DNA of 64,000 nucleotides from Thermoplasmatota archaeon (lineage in GTDB: Archaea > Thermoplasmatota > Poseidoniia > Poseidoniales > Thalassarchaeaceae). The DNA lies in assembly GCA_030828405.1 (NCBI GenBank), contig JAURCP010000003.1:73460-137459 (forward strand). Direction: 5' to 3'. Positions 11,995 to 47,146 of this stretch are shown one piece after another; position 1 is the stretch's first letter, and each line of letters opens with the position of its first letter. The position numbers and the translations under genes are program-made. The notes under the pieces were generated by a model, which did not search any database, was not told where the DNA came from, and saw only the letters and a program-made list of their open reading frames with translations.

Positions 11995-14900
11995 ATGGGC
12001 ATAGCGTATGATTCAGTTTCTGGCTCTCAGAAACGGATGGCGATGGTGTTAGTTGCTCTGATGTTACTTCTTCCGTGGTCGTCATTTGAATCTACAAATC
12101 TAGAAGAAAATTCAGATTTTATGAGTACAATCCCCGGTGCTTGGGGCGCTGGGGGAAGTAATGATACAGGATGGATTGAATTATCTGCAGAAGGTGCGAA
12201 TCCATCCAATGGAACCTATGCATATGGGGATTTATTTCTCGATTTTGCCCCCGGTGCTTTAATTGATAATATGACTTTTGAAGTAAAAGTTAATGGTTCA
12301 GATGGTTTGTGGGCATATGAGCCACAGATTACACTACTGGATACTCAGACACCAATACTTGATTGGACTGAATTAGGAGGATTCGGTATGCAAAATTCAT
12401 TTTCTGAGAATCAACCAGAGGTTAATTCGGCAGGGATTCTTGACACTCGCTTACGACCTAATTCCATAAGTGATACAAGTTGGCAGTTACCTACTGGGAT
12501 TTCTATAACAGATCTAGTCATGGAAGCTTTACGCCCAGCAGATCCAAAGGTTTCCTTTTCATCTTTAGACATTGAAATATACGATAGTGCTGTAAATCCA
12601 GTTGATGGTAGATTATACATCCTACTGGGGGATGACCTACTACATTTAGATGACCAAACATCTACTTTAATTGTAGATATTGAATCTGATGTATATGGCA
12701 GAAGTCTTGCAGTAGATGAAACGAGAAATCGTCTTTTGATAGGAACTTCCAATGGAACAATATTACAACGCAGTCTTTCCGATTCTTCCATCATGGAAAC
12801 ATCATTAATCTCTGATGCTCAAACCTTCGACGCTATCACGGTTGATGATTACGGTACAGTTTGGGCAACCTCTGGATGCAATGTTTACTACACCAGCGAT
12901 AGTATTTGGGAATCTTACTATTATTGCCCTGGAGGTGCCGTTAAGACAGCCACTGATATAGTATCCACAGGCGATGAAGTCTACATTTCTACATATCAGG
13001 GTCTCCATTTCCTAGGTTTTTCAACATCTCCTGGAGTTAATGGAACCTTAGTTTCAGTAGATAGCAATGTGCTGTGGAATACAGGCAATTTCTTAAGTTC
13101 TGATAAAATAAACGATTTACAACTATTAGGTTCTCAATTATTGATTGCAACAGACAATGCAGGGATAGACAGGCGTAATTTAGCTTCTAATTCTTGGATG
13201 GCTACATGGTCAACCAGTAATTGGTTAGCCTCTAATCAAGTCATTGGTTTCGGCCTTACTGAAGGTTGGCTGTACATCCTCGCTGCTAATACTGTACACA
13301 CATATGATACCAATGCACTTTTCTTTTCATCACAGAGACAACTAACAGATTTTGATTTGAAAGAAAACGGTAATGAGATAATTTCTTGGCCTGATTTGGG
13401 CAAAGCAAGAAATCCATATCCTGGACTGGTTTTGGTAGGTGATGGTTCTGGTGTATTGGGCCGTTTAGTTGGAGAAATTAATGACGGAACAGAAACTCTT
13501 GTTAGTAGCCCTTCAACAAATCAAATGAATCAGGTAATATTTGTTGATGATTATGAAGAAGGAGAAATCTGGGTTTCAGGAGGGACCATAATAGATAGAT
13601 TTGATGAGGCAACTCAAACATGGCTTTCTCCAATTGATATTTCAGATTATGTAAGTAACCCCTTCCAAATAACATCGTTTGTCCAGGATTCAGATGGATG
13701 GGTTTGGGTTGGTACAATAAACTCAGGAATTCTGAGACTGGACAATACAGATGCATCGTATATGGGCACAGTTCAGGGCATTGCTTCTAATGCAGTTAGA
13801 TCTCTATCACATGACTCGTATACTGAAATCTTAGTAGTCGGGCATTATGAAGACGGGCTATCATTTGTCAATACATCTTCAATGACACTTTCAGATGTTA
13901 TTACTGAGCAAGATGGTTTAGATTCTGATTTTATCAATGATGTCGTAACTAGGTATGGTGTTGCATATATCGCTACTCCTGACGCGGGTGTTATGAGAAT
14001 TAATTTACAAGAATTATCTATTTTGTCATCTTGGCAATCTCTTGGTGCAGATAACTTAGAAGCCGCCCCAATAGCAGTCGACCAAGATATAATTTATTTT
14101 GGATTAACAGGATTTGGAATTTTATTGATTGATAGACATACTAGTGAAATTATTGATATTTGGGATGCAGATGGAACTAGTGGTTTACCAGATAATGATG
14201 TACTTTCTCTCCATCTTGACTATTATGGCGGTTTAATTATTGGTATGGAAGTACCTAATTCTGGCGGGACGTCAAATCAAGCAATGGCTAGATGGGATGG
14301 GTCTAATTGGGAATATTTTGAAACAGATGTTCCAGGTGGAAATAATGATCCATTCAAAATCAATGATATCAAGAGTGACGCAGACGGAGTAGTTGCGGCT
14401 ACTAACCGAGGAGTTTGTACTTGGACGGGTTGGACAATAATTCAAGGAAACATATACGAGTGGGATGAATGTGTTTCTCCAATGAATAATTCTGCGCGAT
14501 TCAGTGAGACTTTTTCTGTAGAATTAGTTCCTCTTAGTAGTTCTCTCTCCGAAAATTGCTGTACTCGAATATTAGCAGGTCATGACGAAGGTGCATCTTT
14601 GATAAATCGAAATACAGGATTATCTGTTGTAGAAAGATGGACTGCAGGAGATGATACACAAAGAGCTAGGGTGGTAAAAGTACAAGATATATTGTATATT
14701 GGTTTCGAGAATACTGGTATAGGGAGATATAATCTTACTAGTCAGGAATGGCTTCAAACATGGGATGGTGATCAAGGATATATCAATGATGATGACGTCA
14801 CAGTTCTAATTCCTGGACATATTGAAAATACAATATGGGCGGGCGGTGATTTTGGTTTAACTCTCATCGATGTAGTAAATGATACAGTGCTAATAGCTTG

Positions 14901-17900
14901 GAATCGTGGTTCAAATTCTGGTGGTCCTACACTTTCTAACTCCGCACCACAAGATGTAATAATAGTTGATGATATTCTGCATTATTCAACTCAGAGATCA
15001 ACTGCATGGTGGCAGTCAAATGATCAAATCTGGAGAATCAATTTAACTTCTAATTCTAGTGAATCTACTATTGATGTAGGTCAAGAATTGGGTTGGGAGG
15101 GTAAAATTCACAGTTTAGGGCATGTTTCTGAAGAACTTTGGGTCGGAATTAGGCCTACTCAATACTGGAATCAAGGTGATGGAACGATTGCTCGATGGAA
15201 TATTACTAACGAAACTTGGGAAACTCCTCTAGATACCATAGGTAGTGTTGAGAGAGTGAATGCTCAATTCCTTGGTGAATGTTTCCCAATTAATGTTTCA
15301 TCTTGCGAGTTATGGATTGCATATGGCGATAACATATTGCGTCGTTTCTCAGCACAAACAATGACATTGCTTAATGAATGGACAGATATACCCGGACCAA
15401 TCAGAGGAATAGTTGAATATCAGGATGATTATTTATTTGCAAGTATGGATGGTATTCTACGTTGGGAACCTGATAATGAAACATGGTTAGACCCATGGGT
15501 TGTTAACGATGGATTGCCATCAGATGCAAATGACGAATTGTATACAATGATAACTGTTGGAGAAGATCTGTGGGCAGGAAGTTATAGCGGAGGAGGAGGC
15601 TTCAATACCAATTCAGAAATTATCCGTAAGAACGGTACTACAGGTAACTGGACAACATGGAATTTGGGTAGTGCAGGAATTCCTAATGGTTATACTGCAG
15701 ATATTGAAGTTTGTGATGATATTGTACACATAGCCGTTGGAGCAGTCAATTGGTGGGGGAATCAAGGCGGTATTGCTCGTTACGACTTAGCAGATCATGA
15801 TTCCGATGGAATTACTGATGAATGGATTACTTCCATCCTGACCTCTAATGGTCTGGCGGATAATGACGCTCGCGCCCTTGCTTGCGACGAAGCCAATAGA
15901 ATAATGTACGTTGGTTTTGATGAAGAAGGAGTAGGAATTGACAGATATAATTACAATACCGATCAATTTTTATCTACTCTAACAAATTCTGCAGATGGTA
16001 TTTCAGAAGATAGAATATTCCCTGGAGGTATGCTGCACGATGGAAATGTATTGTTAACAGCGCATCAATTTGATACGACAGGTGGTATTTCTAGGATCAT
16101 TACCTCTGGGACATCTACTTTGAATGGTCAGATCCTCAGTCCTGGGATGGATGGTTGCTCAATCGTTAAAGCACCTTCATCAACAACTCCTATCTATGCT
16201 ATAGGGCGCTCCGGACAAACCTCAGGAGTCAATAGAGTTGATAGATTAGATTCTACAGGTTTGATAGAAAGTGGTTTCGATGAATTAACAGGGCTAACAA
16301 GTGGTAAGATACTAAATATTATTTCCAATGAAACAAATATTTGGGCAACATCAAGTTTAGGTTGGAATTCATTTTATGCATCTTCTGTATTACAAGGAGA
16401 GCTTGTTAATGGTGGCGTTAGGTGGCAATATGGATATTCATTTGATGGCGATATTATCAATGATATCAAATTAGATGGAGATAAAATATGGGTGACTACT
16501 GCAGGCAGTGGTTTGTATAAAATTGACACAATACAGCGAACCTTGACACCTACATCCTCAGCTCTCCACTCACAAATGGATGGAATGCATATTGACGATG
16601 ATGGGATAATGTATGTAGGACTAATGGGTGAATCTGGGACCTCTGCAGGATACCAATCGTTCAACACTAATACTGAAAATTGGGGTCAAGGCAGCCTAAT
16701 AGCAGGTTTACCAAGTAATATTGTTAGAGACTTCCTAGAAGTAGGCAATCATGTATTGATTGCAACTAATGGAGGTATAGGTATGTACAATATGACAAGG
16801 AGTGGATGGGATTCTCCAATCACCTCTTATGATGGTCTCCCATCACCAGTAGTTGAGCATTTAATGCTCTTAGAGGGGCCGATACAAGGAAACGGTACAA
16901 TATTGGCAGGAGGATTAGCAGGTATAACAGTCCTTGAAGAAGGAACTTATTCAATACAGAATACCATAGATTATTCTGACGGTTTAATTGGGAATCGAAT
17001 TTCAGGAATGTTGTTTGCAGACTCTGTAACTCGAGAGGTAATAGTGGGTAACTCTACAATTATCCAACATCATAATGCGTCAATATTCATTTCTCATAAT
17101 GGTCAAGGTGCAACAAGACCGGGTGTTGCTGCTTGGGATATTGATACAGATACTCAAAATGGAACATATCTAATAGATATGATACCAAGTAATAATGTTC
17201 TGAGTTTAGCTGCTGATTCTTGGGGCGTTCATGTTGCTACAGACATTGCTCCAGTAGTACATTGGAACGGTACAATGGGGCAAATGGAAGCAGGCACAAA
17301 CCCATCTAATCTTTTATCATGGCCACCTGTAAAGATGGTTTCGAACGGTAACTATCTAGTCCTAATAGGCTCTGGCGGAATTAATCTTTTAGATGTAGGA
17401 AATTCTCACTCTGTAATTGCATCAACTTCAGCATCGGGATTCAATAATGCATTTATTGAATCTAATTCTCTATATGTTGTTGCAGAAGATGGGCTTCATG
17501 TTTGGGAAGGAAGTTTAATTGAACAGCCACGAGAATATCAAAGAAGAGCGGAACCAATTTATTCTATATTTGGCGGTAGGCAATGGGATATTACATCAAC
17601 AACTCATCCAGGTATGTCTACGGTTTTAGTTAATTCTTCGGATCCTCTGTCAATTCCAAATGATTCTAATTCTCTTCCAGGAATTTTACCTATGTACAAT
17701 GGAGCTTTGACAATCACAAGTCCAGTTACCTCATCTAATGTCTGGGCTCGTTCTGTTTCTTTGAATTATTCTGGCTCATGGGATTTAGCAGGAAGAAACC
17801 CTGCAATCGAGGCAGGATTCCAAAATGCTATTTCCAATGTAGGACCGGGCTCTAATTCAGTAGAATTACATGTACAAATGCAATCTCCAATGAATGGCAC

Positions 17901-20577
17901 AATTAGTGTTAGAATGACTTATGATTGGGAAAGAGTGGAAGTTCCAACAATCCTGACATCTTTCAATAATCGTGGAAATGATGGTGGCGGAGTTCTTGAG
18001 GCTACATGGTTACCATCCGAAGATGCAGCATGGTACGGATATAGAGTCTATATCTGGGATTCTACATCTAACCCTGTATGGGAGCCCAATAAACAAGAAT
18101 TAGAAGATTTCGCAGGATATATGCATGTTCCATTTTGGTCTCAAACTTCAGCCACAATCACTGAAGCAGATCATAATGGAATTATGTCAACACTGGTAGA
18201 TGGCAATAAGTATCGGGCGGCAATCGTTACAGAATATGCCGATGGTTCAATTGGAGAGCCTATGTCATGGCCTTTCAATGCAACTCCAATTGACGAAGTC
18301 CCATCTCCTCCTGAATGGTTGACTGCAAATCCGATTTCTGGTGGTACAGCTGGAACCATTTACGCTGAATGGTCTGCATGTACTGAAATGGATCCTTCCA
18401 AGACTAGGCTCTGGGCAGTTGAACAAGAAATTACAAATGCATTAGCATTAACAAACAATTTTGATATCTCAGCAATTTCTGGAAATAATACTGTTCTACA
18501 ACTAAATCCTGGTTCTACATATTGGTTCGCTGCTGTTTGTGTAGACGAAAGTGGTCAATCGGATCTACTTAATGCCACTATAGTTGGTCCAATAGTTACC
18601 GCCGGAGGGCTTGATGACGGCATTCCACCGATGCCTATTGAAGGAACCACTGCTATCGACGTTCCAGATGATGAAGGAGGGCAAATACAAGTTTCCTGGA
18701 TCCCAAATCAAGAAGATGATTGTACATTCTATACTATATTTGCACTACCTGCTACAAGTTGGCAACCACCGAACAATGTAGATGGTTGGCCTGTTTCATC
18801 ATATGTTTCAGATTGTTCAACCAATTCAACAATTATTTCTTCATTTGGGGAAGCTCCTTTCTTAGATGATACGACTTATTGGATAGGTGTCGTTGCTTCA
18901 GATGATTGGGGTAACCAAGATTTTAGCAACGTATTGGTTGTTGAAGCAACTCCTCAATCTAATAATGGCGGAGTAGGCATACCTCCAGCCAGAGTTGATG
19001 GCTTAGCGGCGTTCGATCATCCTGAAGATGACGGAACCGCTATTGATATAATTTGGAATAGGTCTTTGGCTACCGATTTCTCATTCTACACAATCTGGGT
19101 TTCTGATTTCTATCAAGAAGACCTAACAGAATCTTGGAATGATTGTTCAAATTCTCCTGAATCCTGTGGACTTATAAAATTAAATCAGCAACAAATTGGG
19201 GGCGCTTTCCAACTTCGAATGACAGTGGAGAAAGCACATTATGGAGATACAATTTCTCAATCTTCTTCTTCGGCAATAATACCAGAAGTGCCACTATATG
19301 TTACAATCACTACTCATGATATTCACGGTAATGTATTCCTCTCAGATATGCAGAATTACATGGTATTGGTAATTCCGTCAGATAACAGCGGAGATATATT
19401 CCCACCTTCAAGACTTAATCCTCCTCAGTTAACAGATCGTCCATCAGATGATGGAGACGGTGTATTTGTTACATTCCAAGAAAGCGATGCTTCAGATATT
19501 TCTGAATATTGGATATTTGCAGAAACAATCCCATTTAGTTCCTTAGTAAACCGTCAACCAGCAATGATTCTTGATAGGGATGTAGAGATGCCGGTTCTTC
19601 TTCAACAATTTTCAGATGGTAGTCCATTAGCCCCTAATATCATGTTCTGGGTCAGTGTAATCCCAGTTGACTCATCAGGAAATTATTGGGATGAAGGAAT
19701 AAAAACTTCTTCAATAGCTCTGATTAATGAAAATATTCTTGACCCTGGCCTTCATATTCCTGAAATTGGCGGAATAATTGCTTATTGGGATAGCACTGGA
19801 ACTAAGATTCAAATTGAATGGGATGATAAAAACGATCCTTCAATTGAATCATATTATATTTTCTTATCTTCAATACCATTTGAAGATACTCGTGATGCTG
19901 ACACCTCTCAGAATGTAGCTAAGCCATATTCAAGTTATACATGGCAAGCAACTCCATCTGAAACGGATAATCAATACTCGGTAAATAACGAGAACTCCTA
20001 CTGGATTGCTATAGTTGGATTTGATGGGGAAGTTCACCGTCTTGCAGTTGATCCTCTAGAAATACAACCATGGTCTGAATCTGCTTTTGGTTCTGATAGT
20101 GATGGTTTGGGTGATTCAGGCAGTACTTGGATTAATCAATTAATTGATGGTGATATGAATATGATAATTGCTCTAATTTCTGCAATAATGATATTATTTG
20201 GTGGAGTATTAGTATTGAAACCTAAAGGTAGGTCTGCACCACAGCCATGGGAGATGGGAACCTTAGAAGTCGAACTCGAGGAACAAATGTATGACGAAGA
20301 TTTCGGAATGGATGACGATTTTTCAGCAGATGATTCTATACCTGAAAATGTAGAAAATGTACCATTCGAAGAACCCGTAAATATCGATTCTTTAACTCCA
20401 ACCCAATTAGATAATGAAGTTATGGATGAATTACTTGTAGATGAAGAAGAAATTGATTTAGATGACTTAAGTGACTTAGCAGATGACTTTGATTTGGACG
20501 ATCTCGATGATATGGCTGAAGAATTAGCAGATATAGAAGATGATATCGATACCTCTTTTATTGATGATATTTTGTGA
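11995..20577 (+). CDS. Giant surface protein (2860 aa): signal peptide, many beta-propeller (Reg_prop-like) blades, six FN3-like modules, C-terminal TM anchor, acidic cytoplasmic tail
   Basis: Single uninterrupted ORF. N-terminal hydrophobic MAMVLVALMLLLPWSS. Recurrent blade motifs such as DSDGWVWVGTINSGILRLD, DGDKIWVTTAGSGLYKID, ANRIMYVGFDEEGVGIDRYN. Repeated modules with (D/E)DGG..I.V.W......Y.I. TM MIIALISAIMILFGGVLVL at about 20155-20220, then a D/E-rich tail. The start could also be the ATG at 12037. Confidence 0.9.
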   Translation: MGIAYDSVSGSQKRMAMVLVALMLLLPWSSFESTNLEENSDFMSTIPGAWGAGGSNDTGWIELSAEGANPSNGTYAYGDLFLDFAPGALIDNMTFEVKVNGSDGLWAYEPQITLLDTQTPILDWTELGGFGMQNSFSENQPEVNSAGILDTRLRPNSISDTSWQLPTGISITDLVMEALRPADPKVSFSSLDIEIYDSAVNPVDGRLYILLGDDLLHLDDQTSTLIVDIESDVYGRSLAVDETRNRLLIGTSNGTILQRSLSDSSIMETSLISDAQTFDAITVDDYGTVWATSGCNVYYTSDSIWESYYYCPGGAVKTATDIVSTGDEVYISTYQGLHFLGFSTSPGVNGTLVSVDSNVLWNTGNFLSSDKINDLQLLGSQLLIATDNAGIDRRNLASNSWMATWSTSNWLASNQVIGFGLTEGWLYILAANTVHTYDTNALFFSSQRQLTDFDLKENGNEIISWPDLGKARNPYPGLVLVGDGSGVLGRLVGEINDGTETLVSSPSTNQMNQVIFVDDYEEGEIWVSGGTIIDRFDEATQTWLSPIDISDYVSNPFQITSFVQDSDGWVWVGTINSGILRLDNTDASYMGTVQGIASNAVRSLSHDSYTEILVVGHYEDGLSFVNTSSMTLSDVITEQDGLDSDFINDVVTRYGVAYIATPDAGVMRINLQELSILSSWQSLGADNLEAAPIAVDQDIIYFGLTGFGILLIDRHTSEIIDIWDADGTSGLPDNDVLSLHLDYYGGLIIGMEVPNSGGTSNQAMARWDGSNWEYFETDVPGGNNDPFKINDIKSDADGVVAATNRGVCTWTGWTIIQGNIYEWDECVSPMNNSARFSETFSVELVPLSSSLSENCCTRILAGHDEGASLINRNTGLSVVERWTAGDDTQRARVVKVQDILYIGFENTGIGRYNLTSQEWLQTWDGDQGYINDDDVTVLIPGHIENTIWAGGDFGLTLIDVVNDTVLIAWNRGSNSGGPTLSNSAPQDVIIVDDILHYSTQRSTAWWQSNDQIWRINLTSNSSESTIDVGQELGWEGKIHSLGHVSEELWVGIRPTQYWNQGDGTIARWNITNETWETPLDTIGSVERVNAQFLGECFPINVSSCELWIAYGDNILRRFSAQTMTLLNEWTDIPGPIRGIVEYQDDYLFASMDGILRWEPDNETWLDPWVVNDGLPSDANDELYTMITVGEDLWAGSYSGGGGFNTNSEIIRKNGTTGNWTTWNLGSAGIPNGYTADIEVCDDIVHIAVGAVNWWGNQGGIARYDLADHDSDGITDEWITSILTSNGLADNDARALACDEANRIMYVGFDEEGVGIDRYNYNTDQFLSTLTNSADGISEDRIFPGGMLHDGNVLLTAHQFDTTGGISRIITSGTSTLNGQILSPGMDGCSIVKAPSSTTPIYAIGRSGQTSGVNRVDRLDSTGLIESGFDELTGLTSGKILNIISNETNIWATSSLGWNSFYASSVLQGELVNGGVRWQYGYSFDGDIINDIKLDGDKIWVTTAGSGLYKIDTIQRTLTPTSSALHSQMDGMHIDDDGIMYVGLMGESGTSAGYQSFNTNTENWGQGSLIAGLPSNIVRDFLEVGNHVLIATNGGIGMYNMTRSGWDSPITSYDGLPSPVVEHLMLLEGPIQGNGTILAGGLAGITVLEEGTYSIQNTIDYSDGLIGNRISGMLFADSVTREVIVGNSTIIQHHNASIFISHNGQGATRPGVAAWDIDTDTQNGTYLIDMIPSNNVLSLAADSWGVHVATDIAPVVHWNGTMGQMEAGTNPSNLLSWPPVKMVSNGNYLVLIGSGGINLLDVGNSHSVIASTSASGFNNAFIESNSLYVVAEDGLHVWEGSLIEQPREYQRRAEPIYSIFGGRQWDITSTTHPGMSTVLVNSSDPLSIPNDSNSLPGILPMYNGALTITSPVTSSNVWARSVSLNYSGSWDLAGRNPAIEAGFQNAISNVGPGSNSVELHVQMQSPMNGTISVRMTYDWERVEVPTILTSFNNRGNDGGGVLEATWLPSEDAAWYGYRVYIWDSTSNPVWEPNKQELEDFAGYMHVPFWSQTSATITEADHNGIMSTLVDGNKYRAAIVTEYADGSIGEPMSWPFNATPIDEVPSPPEWLTANPISGGTAGTIYAEWSACTEMDPSKTRLWAVEQEITNALALTNNFDISAISGNNTVLQLNPGSTYWFAAVCVDESGQSDLLNATIVGPIVTAGGLDDGIPPMPIEGTTAIDVPDDEGGQIQVSWIPNQEDDCTFYTIFALPATSWQPPNNVDGWPVSSYVSDCSTNSTIISSFGEAPFLDDTTYWIGVVASDDWGNQDFSNVLVVEATPQSNNGGVGIPPARVDGLAAFDHPEDDGTAIDIIWNRSLATDFSFYTIWVSDFYQEDLTESWNDCSNSPESCGLIKLNQQQIGGAFQLRMTVEKAHYGDTISQSSSSAIIPEVPLYVTITTHDIHGNVFLSDMQNYMVLVIPSDNSGDIFPPSRLNPPQLTDRPSDDGDGVFVTFQESDASDISEYWIFAETIPFSSLVNRQPAMILDRDVEMPVLLQQFSDGSPLAPNIMFWVSVIPVDSSGNYWDEGIKTSSIALINENILDPGLHIPEIGGIIAYWDSTGTKIQIEWDDKNDPSIESYYIFLSSIPFEDTRDADTSQNVAKPYSSYTWQATPSETDNQYSVNNENSYWIAIVGFDGEVHRLAVDPLEIQPWSESAFGSDSDGLGDSGSTWINQLIDGDMNMIIALISAIMILFGGVLVLKPKGRSAPQPWEMGTLEVELEEQMYDEDFGMDDDFSADDSIPENVENVPFEEPVNIDSLTPTQLDNEVMDELLVDEEEIDLDDLSDLADDFDLDDLDDMAEELADIEDDIDTSFIDDIL

Positions 20578-40545: not shown

Positions 40546-41694
40546 TTATTTTATTGTTGGTGCACTTTCAGTAATTTCCTCTGTCGTTTCGGAATTCTCT
40601 GATTCTAGTTCGGCGATACTGATTGAAGACTGCGCTCTATGGTAAATTTCTCTTAAGGTCTGATCACCAATTTCTAGATACACTCTTGTCGTTGAAATAT
40701 TTGCATGTCCTAGAAGTCTTTGTATTGTTACTAAATCTGCTCCTCTCTCTAGAAGTCCGGTTGCAAATGAATGTCTTAAAACATGTGGACTTAATCTCGT
40801 CCTTGGGATATCTGAAGCATCAGCGATCCGATCCAATAACTTCTGAACAGAGCGGGGGTTTAATCTCCGACTTCGACTTGAGAAGAATAATGACCTTTGG
40901 TCTTTTTCTCTAGTACAATTTTTCAATCTAGCGTTTCTAATCGGTCTCCAAGCATCTAAAGCATCCAATGTAGCATTAGTGAAAAGCACAGTCCTATCTT
41001 TCTCTCCTTTTCCACCAATAACTAAGGCCGACAAGTCTTCTAAATCAACATCATCTAAGTCTAAATTACAGATTTCTGAACATCTCAGCCCAGTATCAAG
41101 CATCATTGTAATTACAGGGAAAGCAATAGGATCTTCAGATCGAATCGCAGCTAATCTGACCTTTTGCAAATCATTTTTACCCAATGTTCTGGGTAGTGAT
41201 CTAGATCTTGCAGGTCTCTGAATCCATTCAGGGATAGTATATCCCATCCACTTCAATAAATGTGTAATTGCTGCAATTCTTGCATTGATTGTTGCAGGTC
41301 TTAAATCTCCAATTGTGTTTAACCATGAATCAATTCTACCATTATTAGGATTGCTTCTGTTAAATAATTCTGAAACTTGAATCTCTTTAATTTCATTCCA
41401 AGACATTATTTCCTCGTTGGGTAGAGGTGTTGTTGTGAATGTTTTTGCTGCTATCACATACGATCTTATTGTATGCTCACTCTTTTTTTCTGTTTTCAAT
41501 TGTTGAGACCAGCATTCAAACCATGGCAATAAAGCCAATCGCTGAAGTCTTTGTGGTAGATTCTTTGTATGTATTAACAATTCTGCACCATTCAGATTTA
41601 ACTCTTCATTTGAGTTTGCAACAACCTTTGAGATTGTTTTTTCTTCATTCTGTTCAGTCAATTCCCTCGCCTCATCGTCGCGAACGACGCGCAT
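40546..41694 (-). CDS. Tyrosine recombinase (XerA/XerC/D-like) with ~70-aa N-terminal extension
   Basis: Catalytic-domain motifs LDTGLRCSEICNL (R), HVLRHSFATGLLERGADL (H-x-x-R), LLGHANISTTRVYLEI (H...Y). Confidence 0.88.
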   Translation of the reverse strand: MRVVRDDEARELTEQNEEKTISKVVANSNEELNLNGAELLIHTKNLPQRLQRLALLPWFECWSQQLKTEKKSEHTIRSYVIAAKTFTTTPLPNEEIMSWNEIKEIQVSELFNRSNPNNGRIDSWLNTIGDLRPATINARIAAITHLLKWMGYTIPEWIQRPARSRSLPRTLGKNDLQKVRLAAIRSEDPIAFPVITMMLDTGLRCSEICNLDLDDVDLEDLSALVIGGKGEKDRTVLFTNATLDALDAWRPIRNARLKNCTREKDQRSLFFSSRSRRLNPRSVQKLLDRIADASDIPRTRLSPHVLRHSFATGLLERGADLVTIQRLLGHANISTTRVYLEIGDQTLREIYHRAQSSISIAELESENSETTEEITESAPTIK

Positions 41695-41799
41695 CCCATG
41701 TCCCTAAGGACAAAGCCATGAATCCCTGATTGGACTTGAATGCTTCTCTCATTTTCATAATTAGATTACATTTTGTAATGCTTATGAAAAGATGCCAAT

Positions 41800-42756
41800 T
41801 CATGAATCTGCTTGATTTTTTTCATCAATATTACTAGATTGATGTTTCTGATTCATCAAAGAATGATTTTCTTCATTTTTTTGTAACAAATAATTCAATC
41901 TCTTCGACACCGCTCCTGCAACATTAATCTGTGATGCTTTTTCTATACCCTCTAATCCAGGGCTAGAATTAACTTCTAGGACAAGAGCCCCTCTTTCTGA
42001 TTCAAGTAGATCTACACCAGCTATTTCTAGTCCTAAAATTCTAGCCGCTTTAATAGCTATTTTTTCGAAATCTTGATCTATTTCGATCTTCTCTACACTG
42101 CCTCCAAGATGAAAGTTTGAACGGAATTCATCTCCATTTGCCCTTCTCCTCATACATGCAACAACTTCCCCCCCTACAACCAATGCTCTGATATCTTTTC
42201 CATGAGATTCTTCAATATATTCTTGCACCAAAGGTCTCATTTCTCTTTCCAACATTTGGTAAACTAATTGACGAGCGTGTTGTTCAGTTTTTGCTAAAAA
42301 CACTCCTGCACCGTGAGTCCCTTCTGTCGACTTTACCACGCAAGGAGTTCCACCAACTCTACTAATTGCTCTATTTGTGTCTTCCCATGAAACCACTTGT
42401 GCGGTGATGGGGACTGGAATATTTCCTGAAGACATCATTTGGCAAGCAATCAATTTGTCCCTACTCCTAGTTATCCCATCACTAGAGTTCATGACAATTA
42501 CGCCCATTCTTTCAAACTGTCTGACTATAGTGACTCCTCTTCTGGTTATTGAATAGCCAATTCTCGGAATTACTGCTTCACATTCCACAGGCCACCCTCT
42601 GTAGAATATTTTTCCTCCTTTGTCATCAACTATCATTGTTAGAGATAGAGGATCCAATATTTTGACATCCCAACCAGCATTTTCTGCTTCTTCTGAAAGG
42701 CGCTTTGTAGAGTATAATTTTGGCCCACGAGATAGTATAACTAATCGAGGCCTCAT
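41800..42756 (-). CDS. rimK: RimK-family ATP-grasp alpha-L-glutamate ligase
   Basis: MRPRLVILSRGPKLYSTKRL..., VVKSTEGTHGAGV, GVDLLESERGALVLEVNSSPGLEG. Confidence 0.9.
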   Translation of the reverse strand: MRPRLVILSRGPKLYSTKRLSEEAENAGWDVKILDPLSLTMIVDDKGGKIFYRGWPVECEAVIPRIGYSITRRGVTIVRQFERMGVIVMNSSDGITRSRDKLIACQMMSSGNIPVPITAQVVSWEDTNRAISRVGGTPCVVKSTEGTHGAGVFLAKTEQHARQLVYQMLEREMRPLVQEYIEESHGKDIRALVVGGEVVACMRRRANGDEFRSNFHLGGSVEKIEIDQDFEKIAIKAARILGLEIAGVDLLESERGALVLEVNSSPGLEGIEKASQINVAGAVSKRLNYLLQKNEENHSLMNQKHQSSNIDEKNQADS

Positions 42757-42841: not shown

Positions 42842-45163
42842 ATGAAGGAAGGTATTGAAAGACTTGGGTCATCAACAAGTCCTGTTATTATGGCCGACGG
42901 GGAGTCTTACACGTTCGACTCATTATCAAAAATGATGGTTTTTGACTTGAGAGAAATATGTAAAAAAGAGGAAATATCATCCTCTGGTAACAAAGCAGAA
43001 TTAATTGTGAGAATTCTTGGCCATTTCTCATCTGATAATGATAATAACGATTTATTTCTCGAAGAAGCACCAATAGAAACTCAACCCAAAGATTCTCTAA
43101 TTGAAGAAAAAAATGAAACTACCCGCTCTTCCAAGGAGATAGATGATGCGATAAATAGATTGATTTCTCGTGTTGAATCTAAAGATAGTTTAGTTATTGA
43201 AGATAATTCTGAAGAAAAAGAAGTAACAGAGGAATTGAAAATAGTTGAAGAAATAATGGAAGCAGAGATTTTTGAGGCAGAAATTATTGAAGAACCAGTA
43301 ATCATAGAAAATGAAGAACCTTCTTTAATTTTGGACGAAGACGACCCTTGGTCATTAGAAAATAAAGAAGTAAAAACAATTGTTGACCCCCCATCTGAGG
43401 TAAAAGAAGACCAACCATCAATGACAATTGTGTTACCTTCAATGGATGTTTTTAAGAAATATTGGCAGCAAATTTCTGCAGTTATTGTAGTAGTTTTACT
43501 GGTAGGTGCTGGAGTTGTTTACTTCCTCTCAGCGGACTCTTCGTTCCAAGCTAGGCCATTAAATTATGGAGATTCAATGACATTCACTTTGAGTGACGGA
43601 GAAATTATTCTAGATGGTGATGATATGGTTGCATTACTGAGAGATAATTTACCAGATACCGCGATCACAGATGCCTGTAATAGGTTAACAGTAGGACTTA
43701 CAGGAACTGGATCAATTTCAATTGTTGAAGGAGATTTGAATGAAATTTCCCATCCAATTGATAGGCAGTCTTCTGAATTATTAGGAGTAATTAATGCCAA
43801 AGACGCCTATGGGCGTTCTCATTTAACAGTACAACAAGAAATAATACATGATCTCGAAGTAGATCTTGAAGGTAAAACTTGGAGAGATACTAATGTATGT
43901 GGAAATTTAGGTTGGTCTTTACCGGGTAATGATTTACTGATGACAACCAATCTTTACGAAGAATTAACTGAAACAAGTCTATTAAGATCTGAATCAATTA
44001 TTTCATTTACCGATGTTGACGATACTACAACAAATGCAAATATCGTAACTTTTGGCGCCGATGGTTTTGGAAATTTAGACGATATAGCCCCTATTCTGAC
44101 ATTCCCATTGGCTCCTATTGAATTGCATAATTTCTTTGGCGATATTAAGTTAAATTCGGGAATGAATTCTGACTCAATTTCCGATTGGAATAAAGATTGG
44201 GAATGGGTAGTTGGTTCAGAACAAAATAATGCAGAACACGGTCTAGTTTACCCAGTACAAATTTCTCATTCGGAAATTGAAAGGTGTCTTGGAAGAATGA
44301 ATATCGACATTCTTGTAAAGAATGGAGTCCCTTGGGCAGTTGAACAAGAAGTTGATATCTTGATTAACAAAGATCAGAGTACTTCTGACTGTAGTTTTAT
44401 CGAAAGTGCGGCCTTTGAAGCAGCACTGCCTGAGGGAGAATTAACTGTAAGAATGAAGATGAGTATGATAACTTCCGAATCTGGTTCAAAGTCAATTTCT
44501 TGGAGTTCAACATATGCAGGTAGACCGGGGCCTGGAGAAGACAAACTCAGTACTAATGCAAAGAAAGAATGGTCAACAGCGATGTGGGATGAGTCAGAAA
44601 TCAGGTCATTTACATTAGAGGATGCAATTAGTTGCTTACGCGCCAACCATTCTAATCGGGATATTACAGTAGCAATTGATAGTGATGGATATATTTGGCA
44701 GTCTATTTATTCTCTAAATGAGGTGCAAGAATGGAATCTTTCATGGGTTCGTTCGGATGAAACATCAGGGTGGGCGATAGTTAGCCAATCAAATAATGCT
44801 TGTTCATTTGATGACGAAGGTCGTGATGATGGAGAAGTAATTTGGAACCAAGATGCCATTCCTTCAACTCACACATTAAAGAATCTTGAAGCCCGTATTC
44901 TAGATTCCAATAGATATCAAGACTTATCCTTGTCTTTGGGCGATAATCAGTGGTCTGAAGGAAGTAGTTTTGGATACAGACTTTCAGTATCTGAAGATAG
45001 CGATCTTCTTTCATTTTTACCTGGCGATCTTACAGAAGGGCAAGTAACAGTAGCAGGAAGTAGGGAATGGATAGACTCTAATCGTAAGCATAACATAAAT
45101 TTTGCAATGGATGCTCAAACAGGAAGGATGCTCGCATGGGCCGAGATAATTGGCCAAACTTAA
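42842..45163 (+). CDS. Single-pass membrane protein: cytoplasmic SAP/HeH-like DNA-binding motif, acidic linker, TM helix, ~540-aa extracytoplasmic domain
   Basis: LSKMMVFDLREICKKEEISSSGNKAELIVRILGHF (about 42920-43022) fits the SAP/HeH helix-extended-helix pattern. E-rich linker follows. TM ISAVIVVVLLVGAGVVYFL is at about 43472-43530. Start is ambiguous (ATG at 42803, 42842 or 42890); the ORF-track start at 42620 overlaps rimK and I reject it. Confidence 0.72.
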   Translation: MKEGIERLGSSTSPVIMADGESYTFDSLSKMMVFDLREICKKEEISSSGNKAELIVRILGHFSSDNDNNDLFLEEAPIETQPKDSLIEEKNETTRSSKEIDDAINRLISRVESKDSLVIEDNSEEKEVTEELKIVEEIMEAEIFEAEIIEEPVIIENEEPSLILDEDDPWSLENKEVKTIVDPPSEVKEDQPSMTIVLPSMDVFKKYWQQISAVIVVVLLVGAGVVYFLSADSSFQARPLNYGDSMTFTLSDGEIILDGDDMVALLRDNLPDTAITDACNRLTVGLTGTGSISIVEGDLNEISHPIDRQSSELLGVINAKDAYGRSHLTVQQEIIHDLEVDLEGKTWRDTNVCGNLGWSLPGNDLLMTTNLYEELTETSLLRSESIISFTDVDDTTTNANIVTFGADGFGNLDDIAPILTFPLAPIELHNFFGDIKLNSGMNSDSISDWNKDWEWVVGSEQNNAEHGLVYPVQISHSEIERCLGRMNIDILVKNGVPWAVEQEVDILINKDQSTSDCSFIESAAFEAALPEGELTVRMKMSMITSESGSKSISWSSTYAGRPGPGEDKLSTNAKKEWSTAMWDESEIRSFTLEDAISCLRANHSNRDITVAIDSDGYIWQSIYSLNEVQEWNLSWVRSDETSGWAIVSQSNNACSFDDEGRDDGEVIWNQDAIPSTHTLKNLEARILDSNRYQDLSLSLGDNQWSEGSSFGYRLSVSEDSDLLSFLPGDLTEGQVTVAGSREWIDSNRKHNINFAMDAQTGRMLAWAEIIGQT

Positions 45164-45220
45164 AACATCTAAATTTAGCAATCTGATAATTATTATAAGC
45201 GGCACATTCAACTTCCTTCT

Positions 45221-45237
45221 AAGCGCCGAAGGCGCTT
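45221..45237 (+). promoter_or_regulatory. Perfect 7-bp inverted repeat AAGCGCC-GAA-GGCGCTT ending 2 nt before the parA ATG
   Basis: Read directly. It is a GC-rich island in AT-rich DNA within the 76-nt spacer after the upstream gene's stop. It could be an operator, a terminator or a translational hairpin. Confidence 0.3.
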
Positions 45238-45239
45238 GT

Positions 45240-46184
45240 ATGTCTGCTAATGATGACAGTAATCTTCCGGAGGTTGAGAAGATTCCTCTGGTAATCGATG
45301 CTGAATTTACTGAGGAAGAAGAAATTCAAAGTCAAACAAGTAGTTTGCATGAAATGTCTTCTCAAAAAACAAGTAGACCACTGGATTTACCCTATCCAAC
45401 CCCCACTCTCGAAGGTCGTGCAAGGGTAATTACTGTAATTAATCAGAAAGGGGGGGTTGGAAAAACAACTACTGTCATTAATATTGCATCTCAATTGGCA
45501 TTGAGGGGGCATCGAATTTTAGTTGTTGATGCAGATTCTCAAGGAAACTGTGCAACTGGCCTCGGAGTTGATAAGAGTAAAGTTCAGAATACAACAAGAG
45601 ATCTTATTCTTTCTCCAGAGACCGCTATTTCTGCTCGACATGCAACTGCAGTTGATGGATTACACATGATAGTTGGAGACAGAAGTTTAGTAGGATTAGA
45701 GCAGGAAATGTTGAGACAATTAGGTAGAGAAAGAAGGCTTTCAGAAGCTCTAGAGCCATTACTTCCACATTATGATATAGTAATTATCGACACCCCTCCT
45801 TCACTAGGTTTGGTAACTATTAATGCACTTGTCGCGAGTAATGGAGTTTTAATTCCAGTACAAACTGAATATTTCGCTCTTGAAGGTCTTGCAATGTTGG
45901 CAGGAACTATAAGAGAAGTTAGAAATCTTCTAAATCCACATTTAGGTGTTGATGGAGTTTTGTTGACAATGCATGCCAGTACTCTTCTCAATCAACAAGT
46001 AGCTTCTGAGATTTTTGAACATCTTCCTGAGTTTGTAATTCGCCCAGCTATACGCCGTAATATCAAATTAGCAGAGGCGCCGAGTCATGGTGTACCAATA
46101 CACTTACATGACCCAAACAGTAATGGTGGCAAAGATTACCAAGATGTTTCTGATGAATTAGAAAAAAGATGGGGATTAAAGTAA
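45240..46184 (+). CDS. parA: ParA/Soj-family partition ATPase with ~60-aa acidic N-terminal extension
   Basis: Deviant Walker A VINQKGGVGKTTT, VVDADSQGN, IVIIDTPPSLG. Internal ATG at 45240; the ORF-track start at 45150 overlaps the upstream gene. Confidence 0.92.
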   Translation: MSANDDSNLPEVEKIPLVIDAEFTEEEEIQSQTSSLHEMSSQKTSRPLDLPYPTPTLEGRARVITVINQKGGVGKTTTVINIASQLALRGHRILVVDADSQGNCATGLGVDKSKVQNTTRDLILSPETAISARHATAVDGLHMIVGDRSLVGLEQEMLRQLGRERRLSEALEPLLPHYDIVIIDTPPSLGLVTINALVASNGVLIPVQTEYFALEGLAMLAGTIREVRNLLNPHLGVDGVLLTMHASTLLNQQVASEIFEHLPEFVIRPAIRRNIKLAEAPSHGVPIHLHDPNSNGGKDYQDVSDELEKRWGLK

Positions 46185-47146
46185 TGTCCTCTAAAGGCCT
46201 TGGAAGAGGGCTAGAATCAGTAGCAGAATTAGCCAAAGACGGGCCTGATCTTACTTCATATGTATCAGTACCAAAGTTACCTGTTGATTCTCCAAGAGTA
46301 GCAGTTTTATGGATGATTTTTGGTAGTATCTCATTTGGAACTATGAATGCATTAGTGAAATGGACATCAGTAAATGCCGATGTCTGGATGATAATTTTTG
46401 TTCGCTCACTAGTTATCGCCTTAGCAGTAGCTATTTTTGCTAGATTTCAAGGTATTAGCCTCAAAGTCAAAGATAGAAGAAAGATGTTTTTGCGATGTCT
46501 TACTGGATTAATTGCAATGTTGCTATATTTCACAGCATTATCATTAATTCCTATCGGTCAGGCAGTGACATTACAGTATACTGCGCCGTTATTTGTGGCA
46601 TTACTTTCTGGTCGATTAATTAGTGAAAAAGTGTCATCTTCAGTACTCGTTCTGCTAATGACTGCCTTTATCGGAATAGTTCTGATAGTTTCTCCTGATT
46701 TTGATAGTATTGATTCCAATGCATTACTTGCTTTGGGTTCGGGATTATTCGCTGGCTTAGCATACATTTTTGTTCGTGATTTAAGAAAAACGGAGTCACC
46801 TTCTTCTGTAGTATTTTGGTTTGCCGCTTTTTCTGTTCTTGGCTCGATGGTTCAAGCAGTTCCAAACTTATCCGCTTTATCTCTAGAAATGGTTGCTGCC
46901 TTAATAGGAATAGGGGTGGGTGCAGGAGGCGGTCAAGTAGGAATTACCATGGCTTATCATAAGGCAAATGCCGCTTGGGTTAGTGCATTTTCTTATCTTA
47001 CAGTGATAATAGCAACAATTTACGGAATTATTTTGTTTGATGAGATATTAACTCTGAAAATCGTTCTCGGAGGTTTAATGATAATAGGTTCAGGAATAGC
47101 ATTGGCATTTTTTACTCCATCCAGTTCTGAAAGTGAAAAATCTTAG
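46184..47146 (+). CDS. EamA/DMT-family 10-TM transporter carrying a ParB-type N-terminal peptide (MSSKGLGRGLESVAEL)
   Basis: The ATG shares one nucleotide with the parA stop (TAATG at 46182-46186). About 35 cytoplasmic residues are followed by ten hydrophobic helices in two 5-TM halves, typical of EamA. The N-terminal GLGRGLE matches the ParB/Spo0J N-terminal consensus. Confidence 0.85.
   Translation: MSSKGLGRGLESVAELAKDGPDLTSYVSVPKLPVDSPRVAVLWMIFGSISFGTMNALVKWTSVNADVWMIIFVRSLVIALAVAIFARFQGISLKVKDRRKMFLRCLTGLIAMLLYFTALSLIPIGQAVTLQYTAPLFVALLSGRLISEKVSSSVLVLLMTAFIGIVLIVSPDFDSIDSNALLALGSGLFAGLAYIFVRDLRKTESPSSVVFWFAAFSVLGSMVQAVPNLSALSLEMVAALIGIGVGAGGGQVGITMAYHKANAAWVSAFSYLTVIIATIYGIILFDEILTLKIVLGGLMIIGSGIALAFFTPSSSESEKS

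Follow-up and report, generated by a model that had tools for sequence, protein, structure and literature searches.

The region analysed here, a 64-kb stretch of Thalassarchaeaceae (Marine Group II, MGII) DNA referred to below as the window, encodes a Soj-type ParA ATPase (parA; positions 45240-46184, forward strand; 314 aa; Pfam AAA_31, 6e-54), which is followed directly on the same strand by a DMT/EamA-family permease gene (46184-47146; 320 aa; Pfam EamA, 5.4e-24, two repeats). The two reading frames overlap in the sequence TAATG (46182-46186, forward strand), in which the stop codon TAA (46182-46184) shares its last base with the ATG of the permease (46184-46186), and this overlap indicates translational coupling of parA and eamA. 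The distance from the parA stop to the permease start is -1 to +3 nt in all loci, and the permease gene occupies the exact position of parB, immediately 3' of parA. In 86 related loci, wherever the flank permits a check, the SAP-domain membrane protein gene comes first, then parA, then the permease gene.

The SAP-domain membrane protein gene (42890-45163, forward strand; approximately 757 aa; Pfam SAP, 2.5e-7) is a third conserved gene, directly upstream of parA, that was overlooked in the first-pass annotation of this DNA. Its start was placed at the ATG at 42890 on the basis of relatives. The encoded protein has a SAP DNA-binding domain at its N-terminus, followed by an acidic linker carrying a conserved helix, DDAI(D/N)RL(I/L)SR, a single TM helix and approximately 550 extracellular residues, and the SAP domain, linker helix and TM segment are all conserved among relatives. 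The gene lies 5' of parA in every locus with sufficient flank, including loci both with and without the permease motif described below. The parA leader (45201-45236, forward strand) contains a box, GGCACATTCAAC, and a perfect hairpin or palindrome, AGCGCC-GAA-GGCGCT (45222-45236), which ends 3 nt before the parA ATG; the leader is kept in many loci, with the outer pair swapped from A-T to G-C. The palindrome was considered as a repeated parS-like site and rejected, as it occurs in a single copy in the 64-kb window. A scan for sigma-70 promoters and terminators gave results at or below chance, and the sigma-70 scan is unsuited to archaea.

The first-pass annotation described the ATPase as Soj-like, and this is borne out by its PDB matches to Myxococcus xanthus ParA (8RAY, 1.2e-57) and Thermus Soj (1WCV, 7.6e-52), compared with only 5.6e-13 for archaeal SegA (7DUT). 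The protein is approximately 50% identical to bacterial chromosomal ParA/Soj and far nearer to these than to any transport ATPase. The deviant Walker A motif with its signature lysine (NQKGGVGKTT; 45441-45470, forward strand), motif 2 (LVVDADSQGN) and Walker B (IVIIDTPP) are intact. A DNA-binding stretch is also present (IRRNIKLAEAPSHG), retaining the Soj pattern RRNI(K/R)LAEAPS, and K276 (R in many relatives) provides a basic residue at the DNA-binding position of Soj R189 and M. xanthus R238. No C-terminal membrane-targeting helix was evident by eye in ParA. On the other side of the core, ParA has a conserved N-terminal extension of approximately 57 aa with the motif LPEV..(A/I)PL(I/V)ID(A/V)EFTEEE (45264-45323, forward strand), which is near-invariant in 79 ParA sequences and invariant in one further ParA alignment. 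An AF2 prediction of full-length ParA, made with docking of the extension on the core in mind, yielded a poor and uninformative model (pLDDT 62.7) in which the extension is disordered.

The permease was modelled by AF2 with ten TM helices (pTM 0.76) spanning residues 37-309 (46292-47110, forward strand) and both termini in the cytoplasm, and its Foldseek matches with a probability of 1.0 include SLC35B1, TPT, LicB, and YddG. Its N-terminus reads MSSKGLGRGLESVA / MSSKGLGRGLESVAELAKDGPDLTSY and precedes the first helix as a tail of approximately 35 aa. Within this tail, residues 4-14 (KGLGRGLESVA; 46193-46225, forward strand) form a putative ParB-type ParA-binding motif, so named for its likeness to Thermus Spo0J. 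A second conserved motif, (D/E)GP(D/N)L(S/T)S(F/Y) (46238-46261, forward strand), follows it, in which P21 and L23 are invariant and G20 and S24 near-invariant. The AF2 model places residues 1-10 and 20-32 below a pLDDT of 50 and a short helix at residues 10-18; the positive residues of the tail are K4, R8, and K18. The bias of K+R residues, 10 on the N-terminal side versus 0 on the other side, also locates the tail in the cytoplasm. The N-tail is thus predicted to be disordered and cytoplasmic, as a ParA contact peptide should be. The parA gene, the TAATG overlap and the motif-bearing, ten-TM EamA reading frame were all found as the first-pass annotation had claimed, by sequence, Pfam and AF2.

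The likeness to the ParB peptide is close. The N-terminus of Thermus Spo0J is SGLGRGLEALL, and the heptapeptide GLGRGLE is identical at 7 out of 7 positions and lies at an equal distance from Met1. Permease residues L6, R8, L10, and V13 are the counterparts of L11, R13, L15, and L18 of M. xanthus ParB, which were found by experiment to be functionally critical (PMC12462528), and it is these positions (L6, R8, L10, and V/I/M/L13) that are conserved among the permeases. The ParB consensus, aliphatic-G-R/K-G-aliphatic-x-x-aliphatic-aliphatic, is matched except at the fourth hydrophobic position (I19 in M. xanthus), which is small or variable in the permease motif. Translation of the 64 kb in all six frames contains the pattern GLG[RK]GL a single time. 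When the 40-aa tail was used to search PDB sequences, the matches were designed repeat proteins only, which were rejected as spurious; ParB constructs were not recovered because a 40-aa query is too short.

The motif occurs at the identical N-terminal position in its strict form in 111 of 120 database homologues, with a further seven LGR variants, and is kept in 60 of 85 loci. Among motif-bearing sequences, the Leu, Gly, and Leu residues are found in 58/58 and the Arg in 56/58, so that conservation of the motif in orthologous eamA genes beside parA and the near-invariance of Arg8, both posed as checks in the first-pass annotation, hold in relatives. All four Gly, six Leu, and five Arg codons occur in the motif, and this use of all synonymous codons indicates selection at the protein level. 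The motif is not a chance match. Among the best 150 DMT representatives of 1.84 billion proteins, it is present in members of the MGII family only, while 146 other best DMT representatives lack a ParB-motif tail; P0125, the next-nearest DMT protein checked, is not adjacent to parA. However, there have been at least four losses of the tail (in the L021-25/L033-68 clade, in L067, in the O1 subclade, and in the P0124/P0348 clade), and in motif-less clades the second tail motif is missing along with the first. No relocated motif was found in the motif-less loci, as no other GLG[RK]GL occurs in any frame of their flanks bar one spurious match. The tail-less lineages still have parA-eamA coupling, the pocket residues and an almost unchanged ParA. 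As at least four lineages have retained the operon but not the tail, ParA does not strictly need it.

Neither the 64 kb nor any flank examined was found to contain a ParB-like ORF. Searches by tblastn with Bacillus subtilis Spo0J gave a best E-value of 1.7 in the window and no match in the related loci, and the GERRxRA box is absent, in agreement with the earlier statement that the window contains no canonical parB. Nor is canonical parB the conserved neighbour in relatives, an outcome that would have counted against the first reading: it adjoins parA in 0 of 86 loci. The downstream partner gene encodes EamA repeats only, with no ParB/Srx CTPase domain or HTH. A natural ParA-EamA fusion was sought among ParA homologues, and none was found; all of these are 296-357 aa in length.

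Whether ParA itself could receive such a peptide may be judged from the ParB site of M. xanthus ParA, which comprises Y81, E82, D110, V116, E117, L150, L152, L155, L187, and L192, with the invariant Tyr81 proposed as the receiver of the ParB arginine (PMC12462528). In the numbering of M. xanthus, the MGII ParA of all lineages has R in place of Y81, Q in place of V116, E in place of L187, and S, T, or N in place of D110. On the other hand, E117, L150, G151, L152, and L192 are kept, and E82 and L155 are changed to D and I. The altered residues at Y81, V116, L187, and D110 make docking of Arg8 in the canonical manner doubtful. The pocket residue L191 (L152 in M. xanthus) is replaced by Ile in three independent motif-less clades and in 0 of 54 motif-bearing sequences, a pattern that weakly hints at a contact between ParA and the tail. 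The M. xanthus ParB pocket is enriched in ParA columns that do not vary among motif-bearing loci but do so among motif-less ones (Fisher p = 0.0076, in statistics that ignore kinship), but the signal depends on the single divergent locus L084, is not significant once that locus is removed (p = 0.22) and is only a hint of coevolution. In addition, efficient stimulation of ParA normally requires two juxtaposed peptides of a ParB dimer, single peptides being weak activators (PMC12462528). The DMT fold has two internal repeats in one chain (Pfam EamA), and the permease would itself have to pair up to present two tails.

Taken together, these features suggest that the partner of this ParA may be a membrane protein rather than a DNA clamp. 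The explanation we favour, to which we assign about even chances, is that the permease carries a ParA contact peptide anchored in the membrane, which is probably what is left of a parB after its fusion to the permease gene. In ParA/MinD systems, as a general rule, a charged and disordered N-terminus of the partner contacts the ATPase while the remainder is the cargo (PMC10241942), and the permease is likewise encoded by the adjoining gene and has a disordered, positive N-terminus that is predicted to be cytoplasmic. The tail would serve as the ParA contact and ATPase-stimulating peptide of an integral membrane partner. At the membrane, the tail would capture ParA-ATP dimers attached non-specifically to the nucleoid and would fold as a short helix in the dimer-interface pocket; ATP hydrolysis and release of ParA would follow. 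The outcome would be a transient connection of the nucleoid with the membrane that renews itself and may serve to distribute the membrane protein across the nucleoid or else to connect the chromosome with the envelope, and the SAP protein may add a further, static link of DNA to membrane. The most parsimonious origin would be a bacterial parAB operon that lost the body of parB by deletion, with the first parB codons becoming joined in frame to a downstream permease gene. The first-pass annotation had proposed a ParB-type activator peptide, acting on ParA through its conserved Arg, on a membrane-embedded partner. The anatomy and the comparative tests favour this interpretation, but the tail is dispensable in at least four lineages, Tyr81 is replaced by Arg, and the catalytic arginine finger mechanism has been disputed by recent work (PMC12462528).

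The tail may instead be a relic of a deleted parB that is now kept for a role in which ParA has no part, for instance in membrane insertion, in stability, in regulating the permease or in binding the SAP protein. Its repeated loss has no visible consequence for ParA, the Arg-receiving site of ParA is altered (Y81 to R) and the second tail motif, GPDLSSF, has no ParB counterpart, all of which is consistent with such a relic. We nevertheless consider it unlikely, as the strongest constraint falls on exactly the residues with which ParB binds ParA (L-x-R-x-L-x-x-hydrophobic), the ParA pocket's hydrophobic residues are invariant and such a tail is missing from other DMT proteins.

A rather unlikely alternative is an ATPase-permease pair resembling ArsA/ArsB, in which ParA, as a SIMIBI ATPase, would regulate or power transport by docking on the DMT permease; the tail would be just one docking element among several, and DNA segregation would play no part. 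The parA-eamA coupling is tight in every lineage, tail-less ones included, and this persistence without the tail argues for a ParA-permease link that is independent of the peptide. The similarity of ParA to Pfam ArsA_ATPase is weak (1.5e-5; 24.8 bits, the cut-off being 24.3), and in the NCBIfam ArsA models it falls far below the cut-offs. Moreover, the closeness of ParA to ParA/Soj rather than to transport ATPases, its Soj DNA-binding stretch and the presence of a SAP DNA-binding domain protein in the same operon speak against a purely transport-related pair, and we know of no ATP-coupled DMT transporter.

It is quite improbable, though it would explain the tail losses, that the SAP membrane protein is the true partner or adaptor of ParA through its cytoplasmic helix DDAIDRLLSR and that the permease tail makes a second contact of an accessory or redundant nature. 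All loci have the SAP gene, irrespective of the motif, and its conserved linker helix has the pattern hydrophobic-x-R-x-hydrophobic; however, the helix lies within the protein and not at the N-terminus, it is conserved at only 50-70%, and the Arg/Lys is missing in the most divergent locus (L085). Finally, a chance match or a mis-annotated start that leaves the motif untranslated is effectively refuted, as the amino acids are conserved despite full synonymous codon turnover, the next Met after the annotated start falls within TM1, and the sole point for a mis-annotated start, an alternative in-frame ATG 15 nt upstream at 46169 (MGIKV-), is not the conserved start because many relatives have a stop codon directly before a Met located 3-4 residues ahead of the motif.

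If the permease does carry a ParA contact peptide, a broader and more speculative scheme may be considered, one that we regard as improbable in its entirety: a ParB-less, membrane-based ParA machine would segregate or anchor the MGII chromosome, with the SAP protein tying DNA to the envelope and the ParB-derived peptide on a polytopic protein capturing and recycling nucleoid-bound ParA. In that case, chromosome partition and the membrane would be directly coupled, which would give the old replicon-model idea a molecular form in one of the ocean's most abundant archaeal groups. ParA/MinD ATPases are general positioning motors of prokaryotes, and their specificity resides in the short N-terminal peptide of the partner. 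The permease would be the first case of a chromosomal ParB peptide on an integral membrane transporter with no ParB clamp encoded nearby. The first-pass annotation knew of no described ParA partner with this architecture, and no paper describing one was found; a literature search linking MGII or Poseidoniales with ParA or ParB likewise found nothing relevant. Should the peptide work as proposed, the ParA-contact module would be transplantable by gene fusion onto an unrelated protein, the action of ParA would be tied to the membrane in a new manner, and a first handle would be gained on the chromosome biology of Marine Group II archaea, an uncultured group of global abundance. The natural motif-less lineages represent built-in controls.

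Compared with known systems, the MGII locus is most readily set beside ParABS, in which ParA is of the same type, the partner gene lies directly downstream with overlapping stop and start codons, and the extreme N-terminus of the partner has the pattern x-K/R-GLGRGL-x-x-hydrophobic that is also found on the MGII permease. It differs in that it has no known parS, in that the MGII partner has a 10-TM DMT permease in place of the ParB/Srx CTPase, HTH, and dimerisation domains, and in that the MGII ParA has Arg for Tyr81, changes at V116, L187, and D110, and the N-terminal extension of approximately 57 aa. To our knowledge, no partner of the McdB, ParP, TlpT, or PomXY type is a polytopic transporter or carries a ParB motif, and the peptides of these systems are system-specific. 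The likeness to these cargo-positioning ParA/MinD systems (McdA/McdB, ParC/ParP, PpfA/TlpT, and PomZ/PomXY) is that the partner is part of the cargo (PMC10241942; PMC13170346). SegAB of the Sulfolobales is also alike in that an archaeal ATPase of the ParA type is stimulated by the unstructured N-terminus of a partner encoded downstream (PMC8682754; PMC12284271), but SegA is distant from the MGII ParA (5.6e-13) and SegB is a soluble, site-specific DNA binder of the ribbon-helix-helix type. The DMT/EamA transporters YddG, RhtA, LicB, and SLC35 share the two EamA repeats and the 10-TM fold with the permease, whereas the ParB-motif tail of approximately 35 aa is absent from the 146 others and coupling to parA is unusual. 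ArsA/ArsB differs in its ATPase, which has duplicated A1/A2 halves as opposed to the single ATPase domain of the MGII ParA. HubP of Vibrio and TipN of Caulobacter are membrane or polar anchors of ParA that coexist with ParB and, as far as we know, have not been reported to carry a ParB-type N-terminal motif. Noc is a ParB paralogue that binds the membrane; it is a CTPase with the full ParB fold and has an amphipathic membrane helix. HubP, TipN, and Noc resemble the MGII trio of SAP protein, ParA, and permease in that each ties the world of ParA and ParB to the membrane.

The parA gene (45240-46184, + strand) encodes a 314-aa protein (Pfam AAA_31, 6e-54) with a deviant Walker A motif (NQKGGVGKTT), motif 2 (LVVDADSQGN), and a Walker B motif (IVIIDTPP). 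Its TAA stop codon (46182-46184) overlaps the ATG (46184-46186) of a 320-aa permease ORF that extends to 47146 on the same strand, and the two genes are translationally coupled. The permease begins with MSSKGLGRGLESVAELAKDGPDLTSY, and the remainder is a DMT/EamA permease (Pfam EamA, 5e-24, two repeats) with ten transmembrane helices in the AF2 model (pTM 0.76); Foldseek pairs it with SLC35B1, the triose-phosphate translocator, LicB, and YddG. The first-pass annotation, which had described a Soj-like ParA coupled to an EamA transporter, was correct in both the coordinates and the nature of this pair. GLG[RK]GL occurs only once in the six frames of the 64-kb window. Neither the window nor any related locus has a ParB-like ORF by tblastn with B. 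subtilis Spo0J (query identical to PDB 6SDK over residues 21-185), and there is no GERRxRA box.

Proteins in Candidatus Poseidoniales/Thalassarchaeaceae (Marine Group II, MGII) MAGs match the permease at 82-99% identity. Related loci comprise the best 80 (L001-L080) of 114 relatives, obtained by scanning a single genome for each GTDB species, and six loci added via more distant proteins. The order SAP-domain membrane protein, ParA, permease occurs in every locus with enough flank except L086, which carries a more distant, generic DMT. The parA stop and permease start are always separated by -1 to +3 nt. In about 20 loci (position ~6000; L006-L009, L011, L014, L016-L018, L028, L030, L036, L044, L045, and others), the start codon directly follows the parA stop in the same frame, where stop-codon read-through would yield a ParA-permease fusion; the 120 best ParA homologues include no such fusion protein. 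Downstream of the trio there is often a nitroreductase gene on the opposite strand. Upstream (40546-42756, - strand) are a possibly Xer-like tyrosine recombinase (Phage_integrase, 3e-35) and a RimK-type ATP-grasp ligase; L081 and L085, both distant loci, have these neighbors too. One MGII SAP-ParA-permease cluster (L055, NZKZ01000064.1; 67-76% identity) was deposited as an “Acidiferrobacter sp.” MAG and is probably a mis-binned archaeal contig. Elsewhere in the window, 11995-20577 (+ strand) is occupied by a very long, 2860-aa ORF.

The motif M-x-x-x-GLGRGL begins 111 of 120 database homologues, the others being LGR variants (VLGRNL, ALGRGL; seven) and truncated proteins (two), and is kept in 60/85 species-level loci. 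Among motif-bearing loci, the Leu, Gly, and Leu are invariant (58/58), followed by the Arg (56/58); the Gly on either side is kept in 55/58 and 52/58. Every synonymous codon observed for Gly (four), Leu (six), and Arg (five) is in use, so it is the peptide, rather than the DNA or RNA, that is constrained. The start codon (ATG, GTG, or TTG) directly follows a stop codon in many loci, which fixes the motif at protein residues 4-10; together with the synonymous codon turnover, this excludes a start-codon artefact. A second conserved tail motif, (D/E)GP(D/N)L(S/T)S(F/Y) (46238-46261, + strand), has no obvious ParB counterpart and is always lost together with GLGRGL. Of the best 150 DMT representatives from a 1.84-billion-protein library, only four carry the motif, all members of this permease family.

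The N-termini of Thermus Spo0J (SGLGRGLEALLPK) and the permease (SKGLGRGLESVAEL) were compared. In M. xanthus ParB (Mx), the ParA-binding motif spans residues 11-19, in which L11, L15, L18, and I19 are each needed for binding ParA and R13 for ATPase stimulation (PMC12462528). Their permease counterparts are L6, L10, V13 (V/I/M/L in relatives), A14 (small or variable), and R8, respectively; by this mapping, conservation falls on the arginine and on three of the four hydrophobic positions. AF2 gives the tail low pLDDT and a short helix over residues 10-18, and the positive-inside count (10 K/R residues on the N-terminal side vs 0 on the other) predicts that it is cytoplasmic.

The ParA is of the bacterial chromosomal type (M. 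xanthus ParA, 8RAY, 1.2e-57; Thermus Soj, 7.6e-52), and matches archaeal SegA (7DUT) at only 5.6e-13. Its DNA-binding position Soj R189/Mx R238 stays basic (K276, or R in many relatives). The ParB site that experiments defined in M. xanthus ParA was mapped onto this ParA (Mx n = window n+39). Mx L150, G151, L152, L192, and E117 are unchanged; Ile replaces L155 and Asp replaces E82. The invariant Tyr81, for which stacking on the ParB arginine has been proposed, is Arg in MGII ParA, with V116 to Gln, L187 to Glu, and D110 to Ser/Thr/Asn; these four substitutions are fixed across all MGII lineages. Current evidence has the ParB arginine binding a ParA surface site and acting allosterically (PMC12462528), and that site is altered in MGII ParA; the earlier arginine-finger wording is best dropped. 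The identities are consistent with a tail that contacts ParA, the fixed substitutions with a rival reading as a parB relic retained for another reason.

The ParA also has a ~57-aa N-terminal extension, disordered in the AF2 model, with a near-invariant element LPEV..PLIIDVEFTEEE (45264-45323, + strand; written LPEV..PLIIDVEFTE) that bacterial Soj lacks. The parA leader (45201-45236, + strand) carries a box, GGCACATTCAAC, and a perfect palindrome, AGCGCC-GAA-GGCGCT, ending 3 nt 5' of the ATG. Both are single-copy in the window and conserved in many lineages, the outer A-T pair of the palindrome swapping with G-C, and may act in translation or as an operator.

The tail is absent in 25 loci, which on the ParA tree form a large clade (L021-25 and L033/38/40/50/54/57/68), a single locus (L067), a subclade of the O1 group, and the lineage that diverges most (L084/L085), whose proteins begin MNDNDSPR. 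In all of them the trio order and tight coupling persist and the ParA pocket residues are the same, so the tail is dispensable in some backgrounds. Three independent motif-less clades have Ile at L191 (Mx L152), as against 0/54 motif-bearing sequences, a statistically non-robust pattern that is possibly a trace of relaxed constraint.

The SAP protein (42890-45163, + strand), conserved immediately upstream of parA in all related loci, is a less likely candidate for the main ParA partner, a reading compatible with the motif-less loci. Its layout is an N-terminal DNA-binding SAP domain, an acidic linker that includes a conserved helix, DDAI(D/N)RL(I/L)SR, one transmembrane helix, and ~550 aa outside that lack a Pfam match. 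It could be a DNA-membrane tether and would add a second DNA-membrane connector to the parA operon. This speaks for a nucleoid-membrane function rather than one in transport alone. An ATPase-permease regulatory pair is a further, less likely rival reading.

The simplest reading, that the permease tail is a working ParA contact peptide, has in our view about an even chance of being correct. The tail probably derives from a parB whose body was deleted and whose 5' end was fused to the next gene. If it contacts ParA, the partner of ParA would be a membrane protein, and the cellular role may be membrane-protein positioning, chromosome anchoring or segregation, or regulation of transport. Public annotation names the proteins merely “DMT family transporter” and “ParA family protein,” and full-text literature searches that paired MGII or Poseidoniales with ParA or ParB gave no relevant paper. 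No ParA partner known to us is a polytopic transporter with a ParB motif. The tail fits the general rule of ParA/MinD systems, in which the partner N-terminus is charged and disordered and the remainder is cargo (PMC10241942), and agrees with archaeal SegB, in which an unstructured N-terminus activates SegA (PMC8682754).
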